Positions 2,858-24,902 of a DNA stretch of 64,000 bases are shown one piece after another. The position numbers and the translations under genes were made by a program. This DNA is from Escherichia coli (lineage in GTDB: Bacteria; Pseudomonadota; Gammaproteobacteria; Enterobacterales; Enterobacteriaceae): assembly GCF_030013205.1 (NCBI RefSeq), contig NZ_CP122648.1, one strand, 5' to 3'. A model generated the notes under the pieces. That model did no database searches and was not told the origin of the DNA. It worked only from the letters and a program-made list of their open reading frames with translations. The first letter of the stretch is position 1, and each line of letters opens with the position of its first letter.

Positions 2858-4396
2858 TTAGTGCGCACCACCTCCGCCGCCACCTGCGCCAAATGGCGGT
2901 TTAGCAAACCACACCAGCCCCAGCAAGACGAGGAATATCCCGGCTGACATCCAGAAGATCTCATTGGCGGAAATAATCAGCCCCTGATTGGTGATCTGCT
3001 GGGCAATCCAGCCTGATGCCTGCTGTTGCGTCATTCCCAGTCCTTCCAGTTGACTGTACATCGCCTGGGCATTCGGGTTGAACGGGTTTACCGACTCGGT
3101 TAACTGTGCGTGGTGCATCGACTCGCGGTTGGTCCACATGGTAGTGGTGATGGATGTGCCGATAGACCCCGCCAGCGTACGCGTAAAGTTGGAGAGGCTC
3201 GATGCCGCCGCCAGTCGTTCCGGTGGCAAACCAGACAGCGTAATGGTGGTCAGCGGCATAAAGAAGCAGGCCACTGCGAAGCCCTGGATAAACTGCGGCC
3301 AGGCCGACGCACCAAAATCCATACCAGGTTCAAAGGTATAGGCACGCCAGTAAAAGCAGACGGCATACATAATAAAGCTGAAGGTTACCAGCCGCCGCAT
3401 ATCCAGTTTATGCGCGAAGCGGCCGATAATCGGCGACAGGATCACCGGAATAATCCCTACCGGCGCAGAGGCCAAACCTGCCCACGTTGCCGTGTAACCG
3501 TAGACCTCCTGCAACAACTGCGGCAGCAGAACAATCGCGCCGAAGTAGAGCATATACGCGAGGCTGATACACAAGCAGCCGATGGTGAAGTTGCGCGACT
3601 TAAACAACGACAGATCGACTATCGGGTTATCGTCGGTCAGCTCCCAGACAATCAGGAAGCAGATAGCCACCACTGCCACCACGGTAAGGATGATAATTTC
3701 CTGTGATGAAAACCAGTCCAGCTCTTTACCGCGGTCGAGCATAATCTGCAGGCTACCGATACCAATAACCAGCAGTGCCAGCCCCACGGCATCAATCCGC
3801 CGCCGTTCGGTGCGGGTTTCACGTCCGCGCAGGGTTTGCAGTGTCATCAACACCACCGCCACGCCAATCGGTACGTTGATGAAGAATATCCAGCCCCAGT
3901 GGTAATTGTCACTGATATACCCGCCGAGGATCGGGCCGCAAATTGGCGCGACAATCACCGTCATCGACCATAACGCCAGCGCGATCGAGCGTTTGGCTGG
4001 CGGGTAGTTATTCAGCAATAGACTTTGCGAAAGCGGAATTAACGGCCCGGCGACAATCCCCTGAATCACGCGGAAGAAGATCAGCATATTCAGGCTGCTG
4101 GAGACACCACACGCCCACGACGCAATAGCAAAGGCGATGGTGGACCAGAGGAACAGTTTCACTTCCCCGACGCGCTTTGCCAGCCAGCCGGTAAGCGGGA
4201 TCGAGATGGCATTCGCCACCCCGAAAGAAGTGATTACCCACGTTCCCTGGCTGAGCGATGAGCCCAGATTCCCGGCGATAGTGGGGATCGCCACGTTAGC
4301 AATGGTGGAGTCCAGCACCTGCATGAATGTCGCCAGTGACAGCGCAATCGTCATAATGACCAGTTGCGCGCCTTCCAGCGGTTTTTGCTGTTGCAT
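2858..4396 (-). CDS. emrB: Multidrug efflux MFS transporter EmrB
   Basis: 512 aa from MQQQKPLEGAQLVIMTIALSLATF…, 14-TMS MFS; ORF track extends 3 codons upstream. Confidence 0.95.
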   Translation of the reverse strand: MQQQKPLEGAQLVIMTIALSLATFMQVLDSTIANVAIPTIAGNLGSSLSQGTWVITSFGVANAISIPLTGWLAKRVGEVKLFLWSTIAFAIASWACGVSSSLNMLIFFRVIQGIVAGPLIPLSQSLLLNNYPPAKRSIALALWSMTVIVAPICGPILGGYISDNYHWGWIFFINVPIGVAVVLMTLQTLRGRETRTERRRIDAVGLALLVIGIGSLQIMLDRGKELDWFSSQEIIILTVVAVVAICFLIVWELTDDNPIVDLSLFKSRNFTIGCLCISLAYMLYFGAIVLLPQLLQEVYGYTATWAGLASAPVGIIPVILSPIIGRFAHKLDMRRLVTFSFIMYAVCFYWRAYTFEPGMDFGASAWPQFIQGFAVACFFMPLTTITLSGLPPERLAAASSLSNFTRTLAGSIGTSITTTMWTNRESMHHAQLTESVNPFNPNAQAMYSQLEGLGMTQQQASGWIAQQITNQGLIISANEIFWMSAGIFLVLLGLVWFAKPPFGAGGGGGGAH

Positions 4397-15936: not shown

Positions 15937-16319
15937 AATTCGGTTACTCCTTTACGAACGTTTTCGATATCGCTTTGCGTACCCATGAGTTCAAAGCGGT
16001 ACAACCACGGCACGCCGCATTTCCGGGCTATCACATCTCCGGCGCGGCCATACGCCTCACCAAAGTTGCGATTACCCGAAGCAATAACGCCGCGCAGCAA
16101 CGCCCGGTTGTGCTCGTCGTTTAAAAAGCGAATGACCTGTCGTGGCACCGCGCCAGCCGTACCGCCGCCGCCGTAAGAGGGCACGATCAGGATGTAAGGC
16201 TCGTCTACCTGAATCCGTTCCCGCTCATTGAGCGGGATGCGCACCGCGGGCAGCCCTAAACGTTCGATAAAACGCTGCGTATTTTCGGAGCTGCTGGAAA
16301 AGTAGACGAGCTGGCTCAT
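15909..16319 (-). CDS. nrdI: Flavodoxin-like NrdI
   Basis: 136 aa; overlaps nrdE start. Confidence 0.95.
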
Positions 16320-16561
16320 GCACTGGCAGCGTGTGGCGCTGGATGCAGACGATTGATCATGTCCGGGCGGAAACCAGACCAGCTAAGATCGCCTGCAATC
16401 ACAACCGGCAACTGACGAAAGCCCTGAGCACGCAGCGCTTCCGCCGCTTCAGGAACGCGATCGACATTAATCATTTCAAAATCAAAGCCCCGGTTTTCCA
16501 TCGCCCGTTTGGTGGCGTGGCACTGAACGCAATCGTTACGAGTGTAAATGGTAATGCGCAT
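16316..16561 (-). CDS. nrdH: Glutaredoxin-like NrdH redoxin
   Basis: 81 aa with CVQC redox motif. Confidence 0.95.
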
Positions 16562-16769
16562 GATTCGTATTTCCGTTTAAAATGAAGATACGGCGCGATG
16601 ATACGCGTCGGGTTGTCTCTCTGTTGATACAGAGATACTATATGTAGTTGAAAAAAGATTCAACCATACAAGATATGGGAATTTTAGATTGATTACGCCA
16701 CCGATGAATGGCTCAACGGGGTAGGGGATTTTGTGTTTTTTTGCCGGGTGAATACCCGGCATCAAGAAG

Positions 16770-17201
16770 TTACATCCGCATGGAAACGGCCAGACGGTTA
16801 AAACAATTCATCAGCCCGATGGCAAACGTTAAGTCGCTGATCTCTGCTGCGCTGAAATGCTCAAGCAAAGGCTGATAAACCTCGTCTTCCGCATGGGTTC
16901 TGGCAATTTCGGTTACCGATTCCGCCCATGCCAGCGCCGCCCGCTCGCGTTCATCAAAATGATGGCTTACGCGCCAACCTGCCAGGGCATCCAGTTTGTG
17001 CTGTGGCACGCCGGATTTGCGCAATGCTTTGCTGTGCATCTCCAGACAAAATGCGCAGCCGTTGATTTGCGAGACGCGCAAATAAACTAACTCCATCAAC
17101 GTGGTATCCAGCGTGCTATTTTCCAGTGCCGTTTTGGCCTGCACTAGTGCGTTATACACTGCCGGGCTAAGTTCGTAGTAAGGCTGACGTAATGTAGTCA
17201 T
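16770..17201 (-). CDS. Carboxymuconolactone decarboxylase / AhpD-like family protein
   Basis: 143 aa ORF with the CxxC…H core (NGCAFCLEMHS) typical of the AhpD/CMD family; I do not recall this gene between nrdH and ygaM in K-12. Confidence 0.7.
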   Translation of the reverse strand: MTTLRQPYYELSPAVYNALVQAKTALENSTLDTTLMELVYLRVSQINGCAFCLEMHSKALRKSGVPQHKLDALAGWRVSHHFDERERAALAWAESVTEIARTHAEDEVYQPLLEHFSAAEISDLTFAIGLMNCFNRLAVSMRM

Positions 17202-17288
17202 ACAGTTTCTCCTCTTATTAACGCCCGCAATGTAGCACTATAATGGACTGCTAAAGAGAGCCATAAATTACCTAAAAAAGCAGACCAT

Positions 17289-18623
17289 ATGCCGCGCTAT
17301 CAGGATATCGCCCGTCAGTTAAAAACGGCTATTGAGCAAGGGGAACTGAAACCCGGCGCAAGGCTGCCTTCAAGTCGTACCTGGTCGCAGGAGCTGGGGG
17401 TGTCTCGATCCACTGTCGAAAATGCGTATGCTGAGCTGGTGGCGCAAGGATGGCTGATCAGGCGGGGACAGGCTGGCACATTTGTCAGTGAGCGGATATA
17501 TCCGCAACAATCTACTGTACAAGTTGTAGCTTTTGCCGGTGAAAGTCAGCAACCGTTGCCATTTCAAATGGGATTACCCGCACTCGATCTCTTTCCGCGA
17601 GAGCTGTGGGCGCGGGTGATGGGGCGTCGCCTTCGTACCCAGACGCGCTTTGATTTGGCGTTAGGCGATGTCTGCGGTGAGGTGGCGTTGCGCGAGGCAA
17701 TAGTTGATTACTTACGCGTTTCACGTGGGATTGATTGTCAGCCAGAGCAGGTCTTTATCACTCACGGTTATGCGGCCTCAATAGCTTTAATTCTGCACGC
17801 GCTGGCGAAACCGGGAAACGGGATGTGGATAGAAGATCCCGGCTTTCCACTGATTCGCCCGATTGTCACTCGCCATGATGTGGAAATTTTGCCTGTGCCG
17901 GTTGATGACAATGGACTGGATATCACAAGCGGAATACAAAATTATCCTGATGCGCGTTTTGCCCTGATAACACCAGCACACCAAAGTCCGCTGGGTGTGG
18001 CGCTCTCTTTAGCGCGCAGGCATCAGATACTGGAATGGGCAGATCGTAGTCAGGCATGGATTATTGAAGATGATTATGACAGTGAGTTTCGCTATCACGG
18101 TAAGCCGTTACCGGCGTTAAAAAGTCTCGACGCACCGCAGCGGGTAATTTATGCCGGAACATTCAGCAAAGCGCTATTTCCTGCATTGCGCTGTGCGTGG
18201 CTGGTGTTGCCAGTGAAGCAAATTGCACAATTCCGCCACCAGGCGTCACTGGCTCCATGTGCGGTACCTGTTCTATGGCAGAACACACTGGCAGACTTTC
18301 TTCGCGAGGGGCATTTCTGGCGGCATCTGAAGAAAATGCGTCAGCATTATGCTCAACGTCGGCAATGGATTGAGCAAGCGTTGACGCAGCAAGGATTTCA
18401 GGTTGTGCCGCAGAAAGGTGGTATCCAGATGGTGATCAGAATGATAGGCGATGATATTGCCCATGCGCGTAAAGCCAATGCTGCAGGCCTTGCGGTGCAG
18501 GCACTTAGCGACTGGCGTATCCGTTCAAGTGGGGAAGGTGGATTACTGCTCTCGTTTACTAATATCGTTAACGAAGGTATGGCGCGACAGGTAGCACAAC
18601 AATTACGTAAAGCCTTAAGCTAA
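17289..18623 (+). CDS. MocR/GabR-type transcriptional regulator (GntR HTH fused to PLP aminotransferase-like domain)
   Basis: 444 aa; N-terminal GntR-type HTH (…RTWSQELGVSRSTVENAYAELV…) and C-terminal aminotransferase fold I region; divergent from the AhpD-like gene. Confidence 0.75.
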   Translation: MPRYQDIARQLKTAIEQGELKPGARLPSSRTWSQELGVSRSTVENAYAELVAQGWLIRRGQAGTFVSERIYPQQSTVQVVAFAGESQQPLPFQMGLPALDLFPRELWARVMGRRLRTQTRFDLALGDVCGEVALREAIVDYLRVSRGIDCQPEQVFITHGYAASIALILHALAKPGNGMWIEDPGFPLIRPIVTRHDVEILPVPVDDNGLDITSGIQNYPDARFALITPAHQSPLGVALSLARRHQILEWADRSQAWIIEDDYDSEFRYHGKPLPALKSLDAPQRVIYAGTFSKALFPALRCAWLVLPVKQIAQFRHQASLAPCAVPVLWQNTLADFLREGHFWRHLKKMRQHYAQRRQWIEQALTQQGFQVVPQKGGIQMVIRMIGDDIAHARKANAAGLAVQALSDWRIRSSGEGGLLLSFTNIVNEGMARQVAQQLRKALS

Positions 18624-18624
18624 A

Positions 18625-18652
18625 AAACCCCGAAGCCAGGCTTCGGGGTCAA
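18625..18652. terminator. Putative bidirectional terminator between MocR-family gene and ygaM
   Basis: AAAAACCCCGAAGCCAGGCTTCGGGGT hairpin between convergent genes. Confidence 0.5.
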
Positions 18653-18679
18653 AGACGCGTATTTATTATCATTATTGCA

Positions 18680-19009
18680 CTACGATTTGCGCATGCTTAA
18701 CAGTGCGCCGATAAAAATACCAACCGCAGCTGCTGTACCCACGCTACACCAGGGTCTTTCACGAACAAAAGAATCCGCGCAGCCAACGGCATCGCGCGCG
18801 GCTTGCTGGACGCGAGTACGACCATGCATTCGCGCTCTGGTTTCTTTCAGTAGAGCCTGCGCTTTACTACGAGCGGCTTCGGCTTCCCCTTTGGCGTCGC
18901 TGCCCCAGGACTTCAATACAGATTCGAGGCTGTCAGCTAATTGATTGACATCATTCTGGATATCCTGCACGCCATCATCGACGTCGTTGCGGTTCGGTCG
19001 GTTAAACAT
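18680..19009 (-). CDS. ygaM: DUF883/ElaB-family membrane-anchored protein
   Basis: Start placed at MFNRPNRNDV… (109 aa); C-terminal TM anchor; conserved synteny. Confidence 0.85.
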   Translation of the reverse strand: MFNRPNRNDVDDGVQDIQNDVNQLADSLESVLKSWGSDAKGEAEAARSKAQALLKETRARMHGRTRVQQAARDAVGCADSFVRERPWCSVGTAAAVGIFIGALLSMRKS

Positions 19010-19541: not shown

Positions 19542-19991
19542 TCAGGCTTTTACCTGCTGGTAACGGCTGACTTTAAACAGTCGGCGGCAATAATCGAGGA
19601 AGTAGCCATAAACCGCCCCCATCAACATCGAAACAACGATGTTTGAACTGACCGCCGCCATAATCTGATGCCAGTCTGCGCCCACCACTAACAAGATCGC
19701 CACATACACCGGTGACTGGAACGTCACATAAGCCATGATATCCGCCAGATTTTTTATCCAGCCCGACGGGCTAACTTTGCGTGCTGCGCGCATAAACAGA
19801 TCGCGGTACATACCGTATGGCCATGCAATTAAGATGTTCACCGGAATCGCTACCAATCTGGAATAAAAAGACTGTTCGAAGCTCATTCCGGAGAGGAAAA
19901 CTTCAATACACATGTTCACGACAGAACAGTAAACAACCATCGCGAACGTATCTGCAACTGCATGACGCAAGCGTGACTGCGGTGAGAACAT
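19542..19991 (-). CDS. alaE: L-alanine exporter
   Basis: 149 aa from [16 protein letters not shown]…; ORF track extends upstream. Confidence 0.85.
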
Positions 19992-20659
19992 GCTAATGCT
20001 CCTTAATAAAAGCGTAATGGGATGTGAATGGAGATGAAAGCAGTGGATCTCATTGCCATCTGCATTTTCGCATAGCGTATATCGCTGGCTATGACTAATC
20101 AATTAGTGAAAAATTTTTATTTAAACTGTTTTTGTAGATAAAATATTCCGTAACGGCGCGTTTTTTGTACATTGTGGATTTTTACATGCCGATATGGTTT
20201 ATTTTTAATTAAATCAATTAGATATGATTCTGCCTTTAATTACACTAATGAAAGTTTGGGGGTGAGGTAACGCTATAAGCGTAGAGAATTCGGTGTATGT
20301 CGTGACCGGGTCATTTTCAGCATTTTTTATGCCAGAAAATGTACATTGACAGCAGAAAGCACCAGTGAGGGGGGGGTTCCATTTATTCGGTTAAATTGCA
20401 TTTTTATTCATTTTTGTTTTGTCAGGCTTGCGGAATTAGCGAGCAGAGAGCGCCGCTCTGCTCACAAATAACCTAAATTACTCATCAAAATGGCTAATAT
20501 ATAATCTTGAAATTATTCTGAGAGTTTCAGAAAATAACAGCTGAAATAATCTCGCGCAGGACTGTAAATAGATTAAATTTTGTGGAAATATAATAAGTGA
20601 TCGCTTACACTACGCGACGAAATACTTTTTTGTTTTGGCGTTAAAAGGTTTTCTTTATT

Positions 20660-21064
20660 ATGTCCGTAATGTTACAAAGTTTAAATAACATTCGCACCCT
20701 CCGTGCGATGGCTCGCGAATTCTCCATTGACGTTCTTGAAGAAATGCTCGAAAAATTCAGGGTTGTCACTAAAGAAAGACGTGAAGAAGAAGAACAGCAG
20801 CAGCGTGAACTGGCTGAGCGTCAGGAAAAAATTAGCACCTGGCTGGAGCTGATGAAAGCTGACGGAATTAACCCGGAAGAGTTATTGGGTAATAGCTCTG
20901 CTGCTGCACCACGCGCTGGTAAAAAACGCCAGCCGCGTCCGGCGAAATATAAATTCACCGATGTTAACGGTGAAACTAAAACCTGGACCGGTCAGGGTCG
21001 TACACCGAAGCCAATCGCTCAGGCGCTGGCAGAAGGTAAATCTCTCGACGATTTCCTGATCTAA
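20660..21064 (+). CDS. stpA: H-NS paralogue StpA
   Basis: 134 aa; H-NS-like N-terminal oligomerisation and C-terminal DNA-binding region (TWTGQGRTP); long AT-rich upstream region. Confidence 0.95.
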
Positions 21065-23501: not shown

Positions 23502-24902
23502 TCAGCGCGTATTATGAACGGGTGTTTTTTGCCACAATACCAGCTTTTTCCAGCGAGCCATAATTGGCACGGTACAGATAATCCCTATCGCTAATAAGCC
23601 GGTGGAGATCACTTCTAACTGTTGCGCCGGACGGAATAGCATCACTACCAACACAAAGGTAATAAAGCCGATGACCAGCCAGGTGAGCCACGGATAAAGC
23701 CACATTCGCAAGCGAATTTCGCTTCCTTCTGCTCGCAGAATTTTGCGCATCCGCAACTGTGAAACGGCGATGACTAAATAAACCAGCAGGGCGATAGCGC
23801 CGGAGCTGTCGATCAGAAATTTAAACACTTTCGCAGGCGCGTAATAATTCACCACCACCGTTAAAAATGCCGCACCGGTCGAGAGTAATACCGCCACATA
23901 CGGGGTTTTACTGCGGTTGATTTTACCCATTACCGCGGGAGCATCACCGCGACGGCTTAAGGAGTAGAGCATTCTGGAAGCGGTATACAGCGCCGAGTTC
24001 AGGCAACTGGTTACGGAAAGTAATATCACGCAGTCCATGATTAATTTCGCATGGGGAATATTGAGCAACTCCAGAACCGAGCGATAAGATCCAACGGCTT
24101 TCAGCCCCGGCATATTCCACGGTATTAATGCCACAACGACAAAAATAGAGCATAAATAGAAGATAGAAATACGCCAGATAACCGAGTTGGTGGCGCGGAC
24201 AATATGTTTTTCCGGCGTGTCGGATTCCGCGGCGGCAATGGTGACAATTTCTGCGCCCATAAACGAGAACATGGTGATCAACATCGCGCTTAATACCGCG
24301 CCGAAGCCGTTGGGCATAAAGCCGCCGCTATCCCACAATCTTGAGATCCCGCTCACTTCGGCATAAGGGTAAAAACCGCTAATTGCGACTGCACCAAGGA
24401 AAATAAAGGCCAGGATAGCGATGACTTTGCACAGCGCCAGCCAGAACTCAAATTCGCCGTAGTTTTTAACGCTTAATAAATTACTGCCAGTTAAGGCGAG
24501 GGTAATGACCAGGGAAAATAACCAGATGGGAATGCCTGGAACCCACGAGTGCAGGATCATGGCGGCGATGTTGGCTTCCAGCGGGATAACCAGTACCCAA
24601 AACCACCAGTACAACCAGCCGATGGTATAGCCCGCCCAACGACCAATAGCTTTATCTGCATAGGTGGAAAACGAACCCGTGTCGGGCGTGGCAACCGCCA
24701 TTTCCGCCAACATCCGCATAATCATAACCACCAGTAATCCGGCGAACAGATAGGCCAGTAATACCGCCGGGCCCGCTTCGGCGATGGCGACGCTGGAACC
24801 GACAAACAGACTTGCGCCGATAACACCGGCAATAGACAACATGGTGACGTGGCGTGACTTCAGCCCGCCGCCTAACTCATGTGGTTGCGATGATTGCCCC
24901 AT
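23502..24902 (-). CDS. gabP: GABA permease (APC family)
   Basis: 466 aa from MGQSSQPHELGGGLKSRHVTMLS…; ORF track extends 29 codons upstream. Confidence 0.95.
   Translation of the reverse strand: MGQSSQPHELGGGLKSRHVTMLSIAGVIGASLFVGSSVAIAEAGPAVLLAYLFAGLLVVMIMRMLAEMAVATPDTGSFSTYADKAIGRWAGYTIGWLYWWFWVLVIPLEANIAAMILHSWVPGIPIWLFSLVITLALTGSNLLSVKNYGEFEFWLALCKVIAILAFIFLGAVAISGFYPYAEVSGISRLWDSGGFMPNGFGAVLSAMLITMFSFMGAEIVTIAAAESDTPEKHIVRATNSVIWRISIFYLCSIFVVVALIPWNMPGLKAVGSYRSVLELLNIPHAKLIMDCVILLSVTSCLNSALYTASRMLYSLSRRGDAPAVMGKINRSKTPYVAVLLSTGAAFLTVVVNYYAPAKVFKFLIDSSGAIALLVYLVIAVSQLRMRKILRAEGSEIRLRMWLYPWLTWLVIGFITFVLVVMLFRPAQQLEVISTGLLAIGIICTVPIMARWKKLVLWQKTPVHNTR

Follow-up and report, generated by a model that had tools for sequence, protein, structure and literature searches.

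Why do some Escherichia coli chromosomes carry two divergently oriented genes between nrdH and ygaM, when the flanking genes are direct neighbours in K-12? The question arises from a stretch of 64,000 nucleotides of the E. coli contig NZ_CP122648.1 (assembly GCF_030013205.1), which was analysed as a whole and is called the window here. Between nrdH (16316-16561, minus strand) and ygaM (18680-19009/19021, minus strand), both confirmed as flanks by NCBIfam (the YgaM-type protein as PRK10132), it contains an open reading frame (ORF) for a 143-residue protein of the carboxymuconolactone decarboxylase (CMD)/AhpD-like family (16770-17201, minus strand) and one for a 444-residue MocR-type regulator (17289-18623, plus strand). 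Their start codons are separated by a divergent control region of 87 bp (17202-17288), to which no strand is assigned. A first-pass annotation, made from the sequence without database searches, had described just this arrangement; the ORF list reproduces it exactly, and Pfam assigns both proteins to the families named. The K-12 order that it gave is correct as well: in NEB10-beta, which derives from K-12, nrdH directly neighbours ygaM with a spacer of 247 bp, and K-12 strain RV308 and C43(DE3) show the short form, too. We consider it likely that the pair is an ancestral regulator-target module that was deleted in the K-12 lineage(s). It would thus be a vertically inherited two-gene module of the Enterobacterales, polymorphic in E. 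coli through one deletion in the lineage or lineages that include K-12.

The presence/absence comparison in E. coli gave a clear picture. The segment with CMD and mocR is found in 1387 of 5426 complete genomes, and the K-12-type junction in 4033, with 96-100% identity to the K-12 spacer and mostly at least 99%. Of the 5421 genomes with a match at the locus, 5420 are in one of these two states, which makes this a clean two-state polymorphism in which K-12-type genomes lack the pair. The B2 carriers CFT073, Nissle (EcN), 83972 and APEC O18 are at least 99% identical to the window, and O157:H7 carriers about 92%. RefSeq annotates both genes in every carrier genome, that is, in more than 1300 complete E. 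coli genomes. According to junction alignments, the segment that is absent from K-12-type genomes extends approximately from 16736 to 18624 (no strand). The K-12-type spacer is 1871 bp shorter and keeps a diverged remnant of about 22 nucleotides: it retains ACGGGGTAGGGG(G)ATTTT(T)GTG, followed by the roughly 22 nucleotides ATTCACCAGGCAAAAAGAA and then directly by the ygaM terminator hairpin. ATTCACCAGGCAAAAAGAA resembles the right half of a hairpin behind the CMD gene together with bases by the CMD stop codon (about 17 of 23 matches). This would be the junction left by a stop-to-stop deletion of both genes, a resemblance that is only suggestive because the remnant is short.

The direction of the change is indicated by the outgroups. 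The MocR protein was compared with one genome per bacterial species, and the flanking proteins were then located by tblastn on 83 loci. More than 20 Enterobacteriaceae species have retained the order nrdI-nrdH-CMD<->MocR-ygaM-ygaC, and so has Rahnella, which belongs to a different family and has the pair at the same place. E. albertii carries it at the same site (MocR 90% and CMD 96% identity), as do three Citrobacter species (MocR 74-77%, CMD 83-84%), where ygaM is missing. Pseudocitrobacter, Cedecea, Pseudescherichia vulneris, Shimwellia, Pluralibacter and several 'Enterobacter sp.' share the gene order. Across these outgroups, the identities of MocR and CMD drop in step with those of the flanking genes. 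Because of this outgroup synteny, a strong argument, the K-12 gene order would be the derived, deleted state. The K-12-centred view of the locus then has to be corrected, with the laboratory strain being a deletion mutant here and B2 and O157 strains keeping the ancestral order.

That the pair forms a self-contained unit of regulator and target, as the first-pass annotation had supposed, is borne out by the linkage of the two genes across many genera and by a conserved intergenic operator. On these comparative grounds, we regard the predicted regulator-target relation as well supported. The linkage extends beyond the Enterobacteriaceae: Pectobacterium, Hafnia, Budvicia, several betaproteobacteria and many Pseudomonas species have MocR homologues with 41-48% identity and, upstream of these and divergent, a CMD homologue with 58-65% identity. 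In Pseudomonas saxonica, the divergent operon encodes a GNAT acetyltransferase (148 residues), an AzoR/AcpD-like flavoprotein (206 residues) and the CMD protein (143 residues), and in Pectobacterium it encodes a GNAT protein and the CMD protein.

For the operator, we aligned the intergenic regions of 23 Enterobacteriaceae and then ran a pattern on further genera; the result was obtained independently of the motif in Suvorova & Rodionov 2016. Three blocks are invariant, without indels between them, CACTAT(A/G)ATGGnCTG, AG(A/T)GCCAT and AAAAA(G/C)CAGnCCAT, while the other bases vary. We hence predict an operator of 46 bp, ATGGACTGC-N28-GCAGACCAT, in which two 9-mers in inverted orientation flank a half-site with GCCAT at the centre. 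Arm 1, ATGGACTGC (reverse complement GCAGTCCAT), lies at 17243-17251 on the minus strand, with ATGG and C-T invariant, and co-varies with arm 3. The central element AGAGCCATA occupies 17257-17265 on the plus strand, with GCCAT invariant in the alignment, and arm 3, GCAGACCAT, occupies 17280-17288 on the plus strand. In E. coli, arm 3 directly precedes the mocR ATG; in many genera, it includes the ATG. Of the MocR direct repeats that had been envisaged for this region, the conserved boxes were thus found, but as inverted 9-mers plus a half-site and not as two direct repeats.

Overall, the spacing of the operator is constant in more than 25 genera. The same 46-bp layout is present in Rahnella, Budvicia, Hafnia and Derxia. 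The pattern was also applied to eight Pseudomonas loci, of which two have this layout; the remaining six did not fit the strict pattern, and several of these show a similar layout by eye. Both arms change together, to TAAGACCAT in Kluyvera, to GTAGnCCAT in Budvicia, to CTAGGCCAT or (C/T)TAGGCCAT in Pseudomonas and to CC(A/G)GGACAT in Derxia. Such concerted change at sites 37 bp apart is expected if one protein domain reads both. Within the first invariant block, CACTAT(A/G)ATGG in all 23 sequences, a candidate mocR -10 element TATAAT (17240-17245, plus strand) overlaps a candidate CMD -10 element TATAGT (17238-17243, minus strand). The boxes would lie at about -5, +10 and +32 relative to the candidate mocR start and at about -16, -31 and -53 relative to the candidate CMD promoter. 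Their positions at the putative mocR promoter suggest that mocR is autorepressed. This geometry of operator and promoters resembles that of the GabR operator.

Two further candidates at the operator were discarded. The sequence GCAGWCCAT occurs three times in the 64-kb window, as the two arms and as a lone site at 24030-24038; chance would give about 1.0 match, and three were reached in 8 of 100 shuffles, so that the count gives no evidence of extra regulon members in the window. In the operator spacer 17250-17272, two adjacent pieces of 12 and 11 nucleotides are perfectly complementary to mocR 18002-18013 and 18143-18153, as if the 5' untranslated region paired with the coding sequence. This complementarity is probably due to chance because O157, E. 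albertii and Citrobacter have lost it with no compensating substitutions.

The small protein matches the CMD family PF02627 in Pfam (E 3.5e-21) and TIGR00778 in NCBIfam (54.9 bits against a cut-off of 27.8), and its best NCBIfam matches are AhpD core domain and peroxidase-related models. The CxxC motif reads C49-A-F-C52, and its cysteines form, together with E37 and H56, a set that resembles a proton relay. Homology searches for its likely substrate class led to PA0269 of Pseudomonas aeruginosa as the closest studied relative (2IJC/2O4D/7XW1; E 3e-31, 41% identity) and hence to the AhpD-like thiol oxidoreductases; Atu0492 (2GMY) was matched in the PDB as well. In PA0269, the relay consists of Glu36/Cys48/Tyr50/Cys51/His55, and the cysteine-dependent reduction of H2O2 is weak and sensitive to N-ethylmaleimide (Clarke et al., PMC3141380). 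The counterparts in the E. coli protein are E37, C49, F51, C52 and H56. E37, C49, C52 and H56 are invariant in 23 orthologs and in PA0269, and position 51 is Phe or Tyr. The CMD domain, the CxxC motif and the Glu/His residues of the AhpD branch are thus all present, with Phe, not Tyr or His, at the fifth relay position. Because the CxxC/Glu/His set is conserved, the protein is predicted to be a CxxC thiol oxidoreductase of the AhpD-like kind rather than a decarboxylase of the PcaC type.

The regulator combines an N-terminal GntR winged helix-turn-helix (wHTH) domain (PF00392, residues 4-66, E 1.4e-17) with a fold-type-I aminotransferase-like domain at about residues 100-440 (Aminotran_1_2, PF00155, E 1.4e-25). 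A HMMER alignment to 4N0B and 7PQ9 places the lysine that binds pyridoxal 5'-phosphate (PLP) at Lys294, encoded at 18168-18170 on the plus strand within GTFSKALFPALR. K294 aligns with the PLP-binding Lys312 of Bacillus subtilis GabR and R301 with the phosphate-binding R319. The protein thus has the wHTH domain and the PLP lysine of the MocR/GabR family and, on computational evidence, the repeated operator boxes beside its gene. The arginines with which GabR holds the GABA carboxylate are replaced, R207 by L188 and R430 by D408; as both are missing, the effector should not be GABA-like.

In newer RefSeq releases, the regulator is named 'pdxR: MocR-like pyridoxine biosynthesis transcription factor', because it scores above the cut-off of the NCBIfam PdxR model NF052282 (408 bits against 320). 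Taken at its word, this name would mean that the regulator senses PLP and activates genes for the biosynthesis or salvage of vitamin B6. PdxR of Bacillus clausii is indeed the best solved relative (7PQ9, E 1e-62), and PdxR, too, has no arginines at the positions of Leu188 and Asp408, so that PLP is a possible ligand. Nevertheless, we consider such a role unlikely. No pdxST, pdxK or other linked pdx gene was present in about 80 loci examined, nor between nrdF and ygaV here, and control of adjacent genes for PLP synthesis or salvage was thus not seen. Instead, every Enterobacterales locus and most of the other loci examined have a CMD/AhpD-like gene in the divergent position, with or without GNAT and AzoR genes, and in the genera examined a pdx gene never takes this place. 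E. coli synthesizes PLP by the PdxA/PdxJ route and is not known to have pdxST, which also counts against this role. The tables of the 2016 regulon study keep the group 'Spro_3719' apart from those named PdxR (PMC5320631). Gene context hence does not support PdxR as a functional name, and PLP could still be the ligand. Probably an annotation error is spreading in RefSeq, with 'pdxR' attached to a regulator that has a redox enzyme as its conserved target.

Where the two genes are retained, they are under purifying selection. The ratio of nonsynonymous to synonymous substitution rates (dN/dS, Nei-Gojobori) was determined between the window, which is of the B2 type, and O157, the divergent E. coli SCPM-O-B-8794 and E. 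albertii, with dS reaching 0.7. It was 0.03-0.06 for the CMD gene and 0.07-0.11 for mocR, from which purifying selection follows. Both ORFs are intact in 1276 genomes.

A number of observations weigh against an ancestral, functional module. The pair is absent from 74% of the genomes. About 111 genomes, e.g., that of strain T309.Ta3 (NZ_CP128255), carry an identical deletion of about 585 bp (window 17289 to ~17872) that takes the start codon, the DNA-binding wHTH domain and the linker of MocR and leaves the operator and the CMD gene untouched. In CFT073, the CMD gene has lost one nucleotide four codons ahead of the stop codon (window ~16780) and is annotated with 161 residues (1146-1631 in its locus), a frameshifted tail of 21 residues replacing the final MRM. 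Such repeated decay suggests that the module is dispensable in many niches. At the K-12 junction, only about 17 of 23 bases of the remnant match, and the 45 nucleotides adjoining it differ strongly between both junction types; therefore, the deletion may be old or may have moved between lineages by recombination. A consensus promoter scan called no canonical sigma-70 -35/-10 pair in the intergenic region, and for this reason the promoter positions and the logic of activation or repression are only inferred. Phe51 stands where PA0269 has Tyr50 (His132 in Mycobacterium tuberculosis AhpD), which leaves the five-residue relay incomplete. No AhpC-type partner gene occurs in the neighbourhood according to ORF list and annotation, and coupling to an AhpC-type peroxiredoxin, typical of the AhpD branch, was not found; the partners of the relatives are GNAT and AzoR genes. 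Finally, our literature search found no experimental study of the MocR-CMD pair in any species and no paper on MocR and carboxymuconolactone decarboxylase together.

Taken further, the absence from most complete genomes, the loss of the MocR DNA-binding domain and the frameshifted CMD C-terminus of CFT073 could mean that the pair is a functionless relic in the course of being lost, with the intergenic motif conserved by nothing but shared ancestry. In line with this, STM2804 was chosen as a neutral place for an insertion when Salmonella was studied in mice (PMC3723669). However, the low dN/dS values at a dS of up to 0.7 and the large number of intact ORFs do not fit a relic. Moreover, the operator boxes are invariant amid freely varying intergenic bases, and their arms co-vary across orders. 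We hence hold a relic to be decidedly improbable and keep to the functional module. The strains with the ~585-bp deletion are natural regulator knock-outs, which could tell activation by MocR from repression.

The first-pass annotation had taken the pair to be inserted between nrdH and ygaM, and horizontal transfer into this spacer in the lineage of the present strain would explain the K-12-type genomes without the cassette. Furthermore, between B2 and O157 the dS of mocR is 0.41, far above that of the neighbouring CMD, nrdI and ygaC (0.10-0.14), an excess that shows recombination or old allelic divergence in the block. Yet E. albertii, Citrobacter, Cedecea, Pluralibacter, Shimwellia and Rahnella share position and orientation of the pair, with identities that track the flanks, and this outgroup synteny largely refutes an insertion. 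Every E. coli carrier has one copy, always chromosomal and never on a plasmid. The GC content of the segment (0.49-0.53) is that of its surroundings, a repeat search found no boundary repeats, and the ORF list and flanks contain no mobility genes, integrase or tRNA; neither absence at the outgroup site nor any other mark of a genomic island was thus seen. The uniformity of the 4033 cassette-free junctions likewise counts against an insertion. Altogether, we see very little chance that the pair arrived by transfer. Still more remote is a true gamma-carboxymuconolactone decarboxylase (PcaC) of aromatic catabolism, as the Pfam family name and the RefSeq product name would have it, given that the protein contains the AhpD-like CxxC/Glu/His set that the gamma-CMD branch is without (PMC3141380), that no pca genes are nearby and that the top NCBIfam models are AhpD core domain and peroxidase-related.

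Between B2 and O157, the higher divergence extends over window 17289-19009, with ygaM at a dS of 0.33. MocR differs at 8% of its residues, and NrdI, NrdH, YgaM and YgaC are identical. The mocR-ygaM region thus resembles a haplotype block that has diverged, either because the polymorphism is old or through recombination.

How might the ancestral module work? A MocR dimer would bind the 46-bp operator, which overlaps the likely mocR promoter and start codon and positions -10 to -55 of the likely CMD promoter. If it acts as GabR and PdxR do, MocR may repress its own gene, and the divergent CMD gene may be switched on or derepressed when an effector, possibly amine-type or PLP-related, fills the sensor domain. 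The target would be the small AhpD-like CxxC thiol oxidoreductase. With modest confidence, we regard detoxification of the redox, electrophile or arylamine type (oxidant, quinone, azo) as the most likely role, rather than B6 synthesis, because the regulons of relatives hold GNAT, azoreductase, Bcp, DsbD-like COG4232 proteins and cupins. As a quite speculative and improbable extension, the PLP cofactor itself may act as the chemical sensor of a PLP-reactive or redox-active xenobiotic that induces the AhpD-like reductase, with read-through from the CMD gene giving nrdHIEF an extra stress input. Such a xenobiotic might be an arylamine, hydroxylamine, hydrazine or a quinone- or azo-derived product. 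If this were true, the oxidative-stress ribonucleotide reductase of B2 extraintestinal pathogenic E. coli and of O157 carriers would respond to one more stress signal than that of K-12.

Transcription leaving the two genes meets hairpins on both sides. The hairpin at 18626-18650 has an 11-bp stem with seven G-C pairs and a folding energy of -18.6 kcal/mol on the plus and -21.7 kcal/mol on the minus strand. We assign it to ygaM as intrinsic terminator (minus strand) because a T-run follows on the minus strand only; the mocR strand continues with CAAAGACG. The 'bidirectional terminator' described earlier is hence real as a hairpin, and its bidirectionality is only weakly supported; it may slow mocR transcripts but lacks the symmetry of a terminator for both directions. 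It forms the downstream limit of the polymorphic segment and is unchanged in K-12, so it predates the polymorphism. Directly after the CMD stop codon, a second hairpin, TGCCGGGT-GAAT-ACCCGGCA (16742-16761, no strand), folds with -15 to -16 kcal/mol, and K-12 possibly keeps a remnant of its right half. It has a T-run on its 5' side and no U-run on either transcript. As an intrinsic terminator of the CMD gene it was rejected, since the T-run is on the wrong side for either strand and the scan did not call it. Terminator scan and folding thus recognised no intrinsic terminator on the way from the CMD gene to the promoter region of nrdHIEF, which has the same orientation, and, judging from this arrangement, CMD transcripts may read through towards nrdHIEF.

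Also upstream of nrdH, a stretch of about 45 nucleotides (~16672-16716) is only about 60% alike between all cassette carriers (B2, O157, E. albertii) and K-12, and the sequence on both sides of this stretch is nearly identical. It would lie within or close to the part of the nrdHIEF promoter that holds the NrdR and Fur boxes. Regulation of nrdHIEF may thus differ between carriers and non-carriers. At the other end, O157:H7 contains a REP-like insert of about 94 bp with CCTGATGCGCTATGTTTTTCAGGCCTGTAGGCGG between the ygaM terminator hairpin and ygaM, at window position 18651 (locus positions ~3860-3955 in O157), which is found neither in the window nor in K-12. The start of ygaM is ambiguous in a minor way, as the ORF from 19021 encodes 113 residues and the RefSeq gene from 19009 encodes 109. 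Further along, in the alaE-stpA intergenic region upstream of stpA (19800-20700), the GC content falls to 0.34-0.41 against a local 0.50.

In O157 EDL933, the protein encoded by z3974 bound to a salicylidene acylhydrazide affinity resin as one of 16 proteins, Tpx and WrbA being others, but gave no Far-Western signal (PMC3191033). ECs3533 is ygaM; by numbering, z3974 may be the CMD gene. In Salmonella, STM2804 lies about 5 kb from stpA and has been described as being of unknown function (PMC3723669), and our literature search met STM2803/STM2804 only as a neutral marker site. The importance of the present findings is modest, and they leave the knowledge of how MocR regulators or AhpD-like proteins work unchanged. 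Together, the three-box operator and the natural regulator-deletion strains would offer a straightforward entry to one of the many orphan MocR regulons.

How does the pair compare with known systems? One of these is AhpD of M. tuberculosis, likewise a CMD-fold CxxC protein with a Glu/Cys/Cys/His relay. It is much longer, however, with the active site at the other chain end, and it is encoded beside ahpC and works via lipoamide/DlaT, partners that do not occur near the CMD gene here. PA0269 agrees with the E. coli protein in fold, length and CxxC, Glu and His residues (41% identity), and it is also paired with a MocR protein, PA0268 (group 'PA0268', target COG2128). This regulator, however, belongs to a paralogous MocR group, and PA0269 has the motif CAYC where the E. 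coli protein has CAFC. Pseudomonas proteins more closely related to the latter (58-62% identity) are encoded in GNAT-AzoR-CMD operons.

Among the regulators, B. clausii PdxR is the best solved relative, and the E. coli protein scores above the NCBIfam PdxR cut-off. The operator of PdxR reportedly consists of three boxes in mixed orientation (Tramonti 2015 and Freda 2023), which would be a further likeness. The two differ in their targets, with a CMD/AhpD-like gene here and no linked pdxST, pdxK or other pdx gene in the loci inspected. GabR (4N0B), the paradigm among MocR regulators, has in common with the E. coli regulator the wHTH domain joined to an aminotransferase fold, the PLP lysine (K312/K294), the phosphate arginine (R319/R301), the divergent target and an operator of about 46 bp that covers the promoter of the regulator gene as well as the upstream portion of the target's promoter. 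In contrast, GabR binds GABA with Arg207 and Arg430, where Leu and Asp are found here, its operator contains two direct ATACCA repeats in place of inverted 9-mers with a central half-site, and its target is gabTD and not a redox enzyme.

The orthologous counterpart is a group from the 761 MocR regulons that Suvorova & Rodionov 2016 reconstructed in silico in RegPrecise (PMC5320631). Table S1b of that study lists, as regulog 'Spro_3719 - Enterobacteriales', Salmonella STM2803, Citrobacter koseri CKO_04020, Klebsiella pneumoniae MGH 78578 KPN_03002 (printed as 'KPM_03002'), Enterobacter Ent638_0497, Pectobacterium ECA2654 and Serratia Spro_3719, each with a single COG2128 (AhpD/CMD) target. COG2128 genes appear in 53 MocR regulons overall, and the tables also place Bcp, a DsbD-like COG4232 protein and cupins in the regulon (PMC5320631). 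The regulator-target relation was hence already predicted for orthologs in 2016, and both genes are already annotated in RefSeq. Useful results of the present analysis are the operator coordinates, the natural strains without the MocR DNA-binding domain and the caution on the PdxR name. The member list in that table differs in naming no E. coli gene, K-12-type genomes being without the pair, and the regulon is an in-silico one (PMC5320631). Otherwise, the Spro_3719 group agrees with the E. coli pair in architecture, in the single divergent COG2128 target and in location, with STM2804 about 5 kb from stpA like the CMD gene here. The agreement extends to Pseudomonas fluorescens, where PFL_2191 is listed as regulating COG2128, AcpD and GNAT genes (PMC5320631, Table S1b), the same operon that we found divergent from mocR in Pseudomonas.

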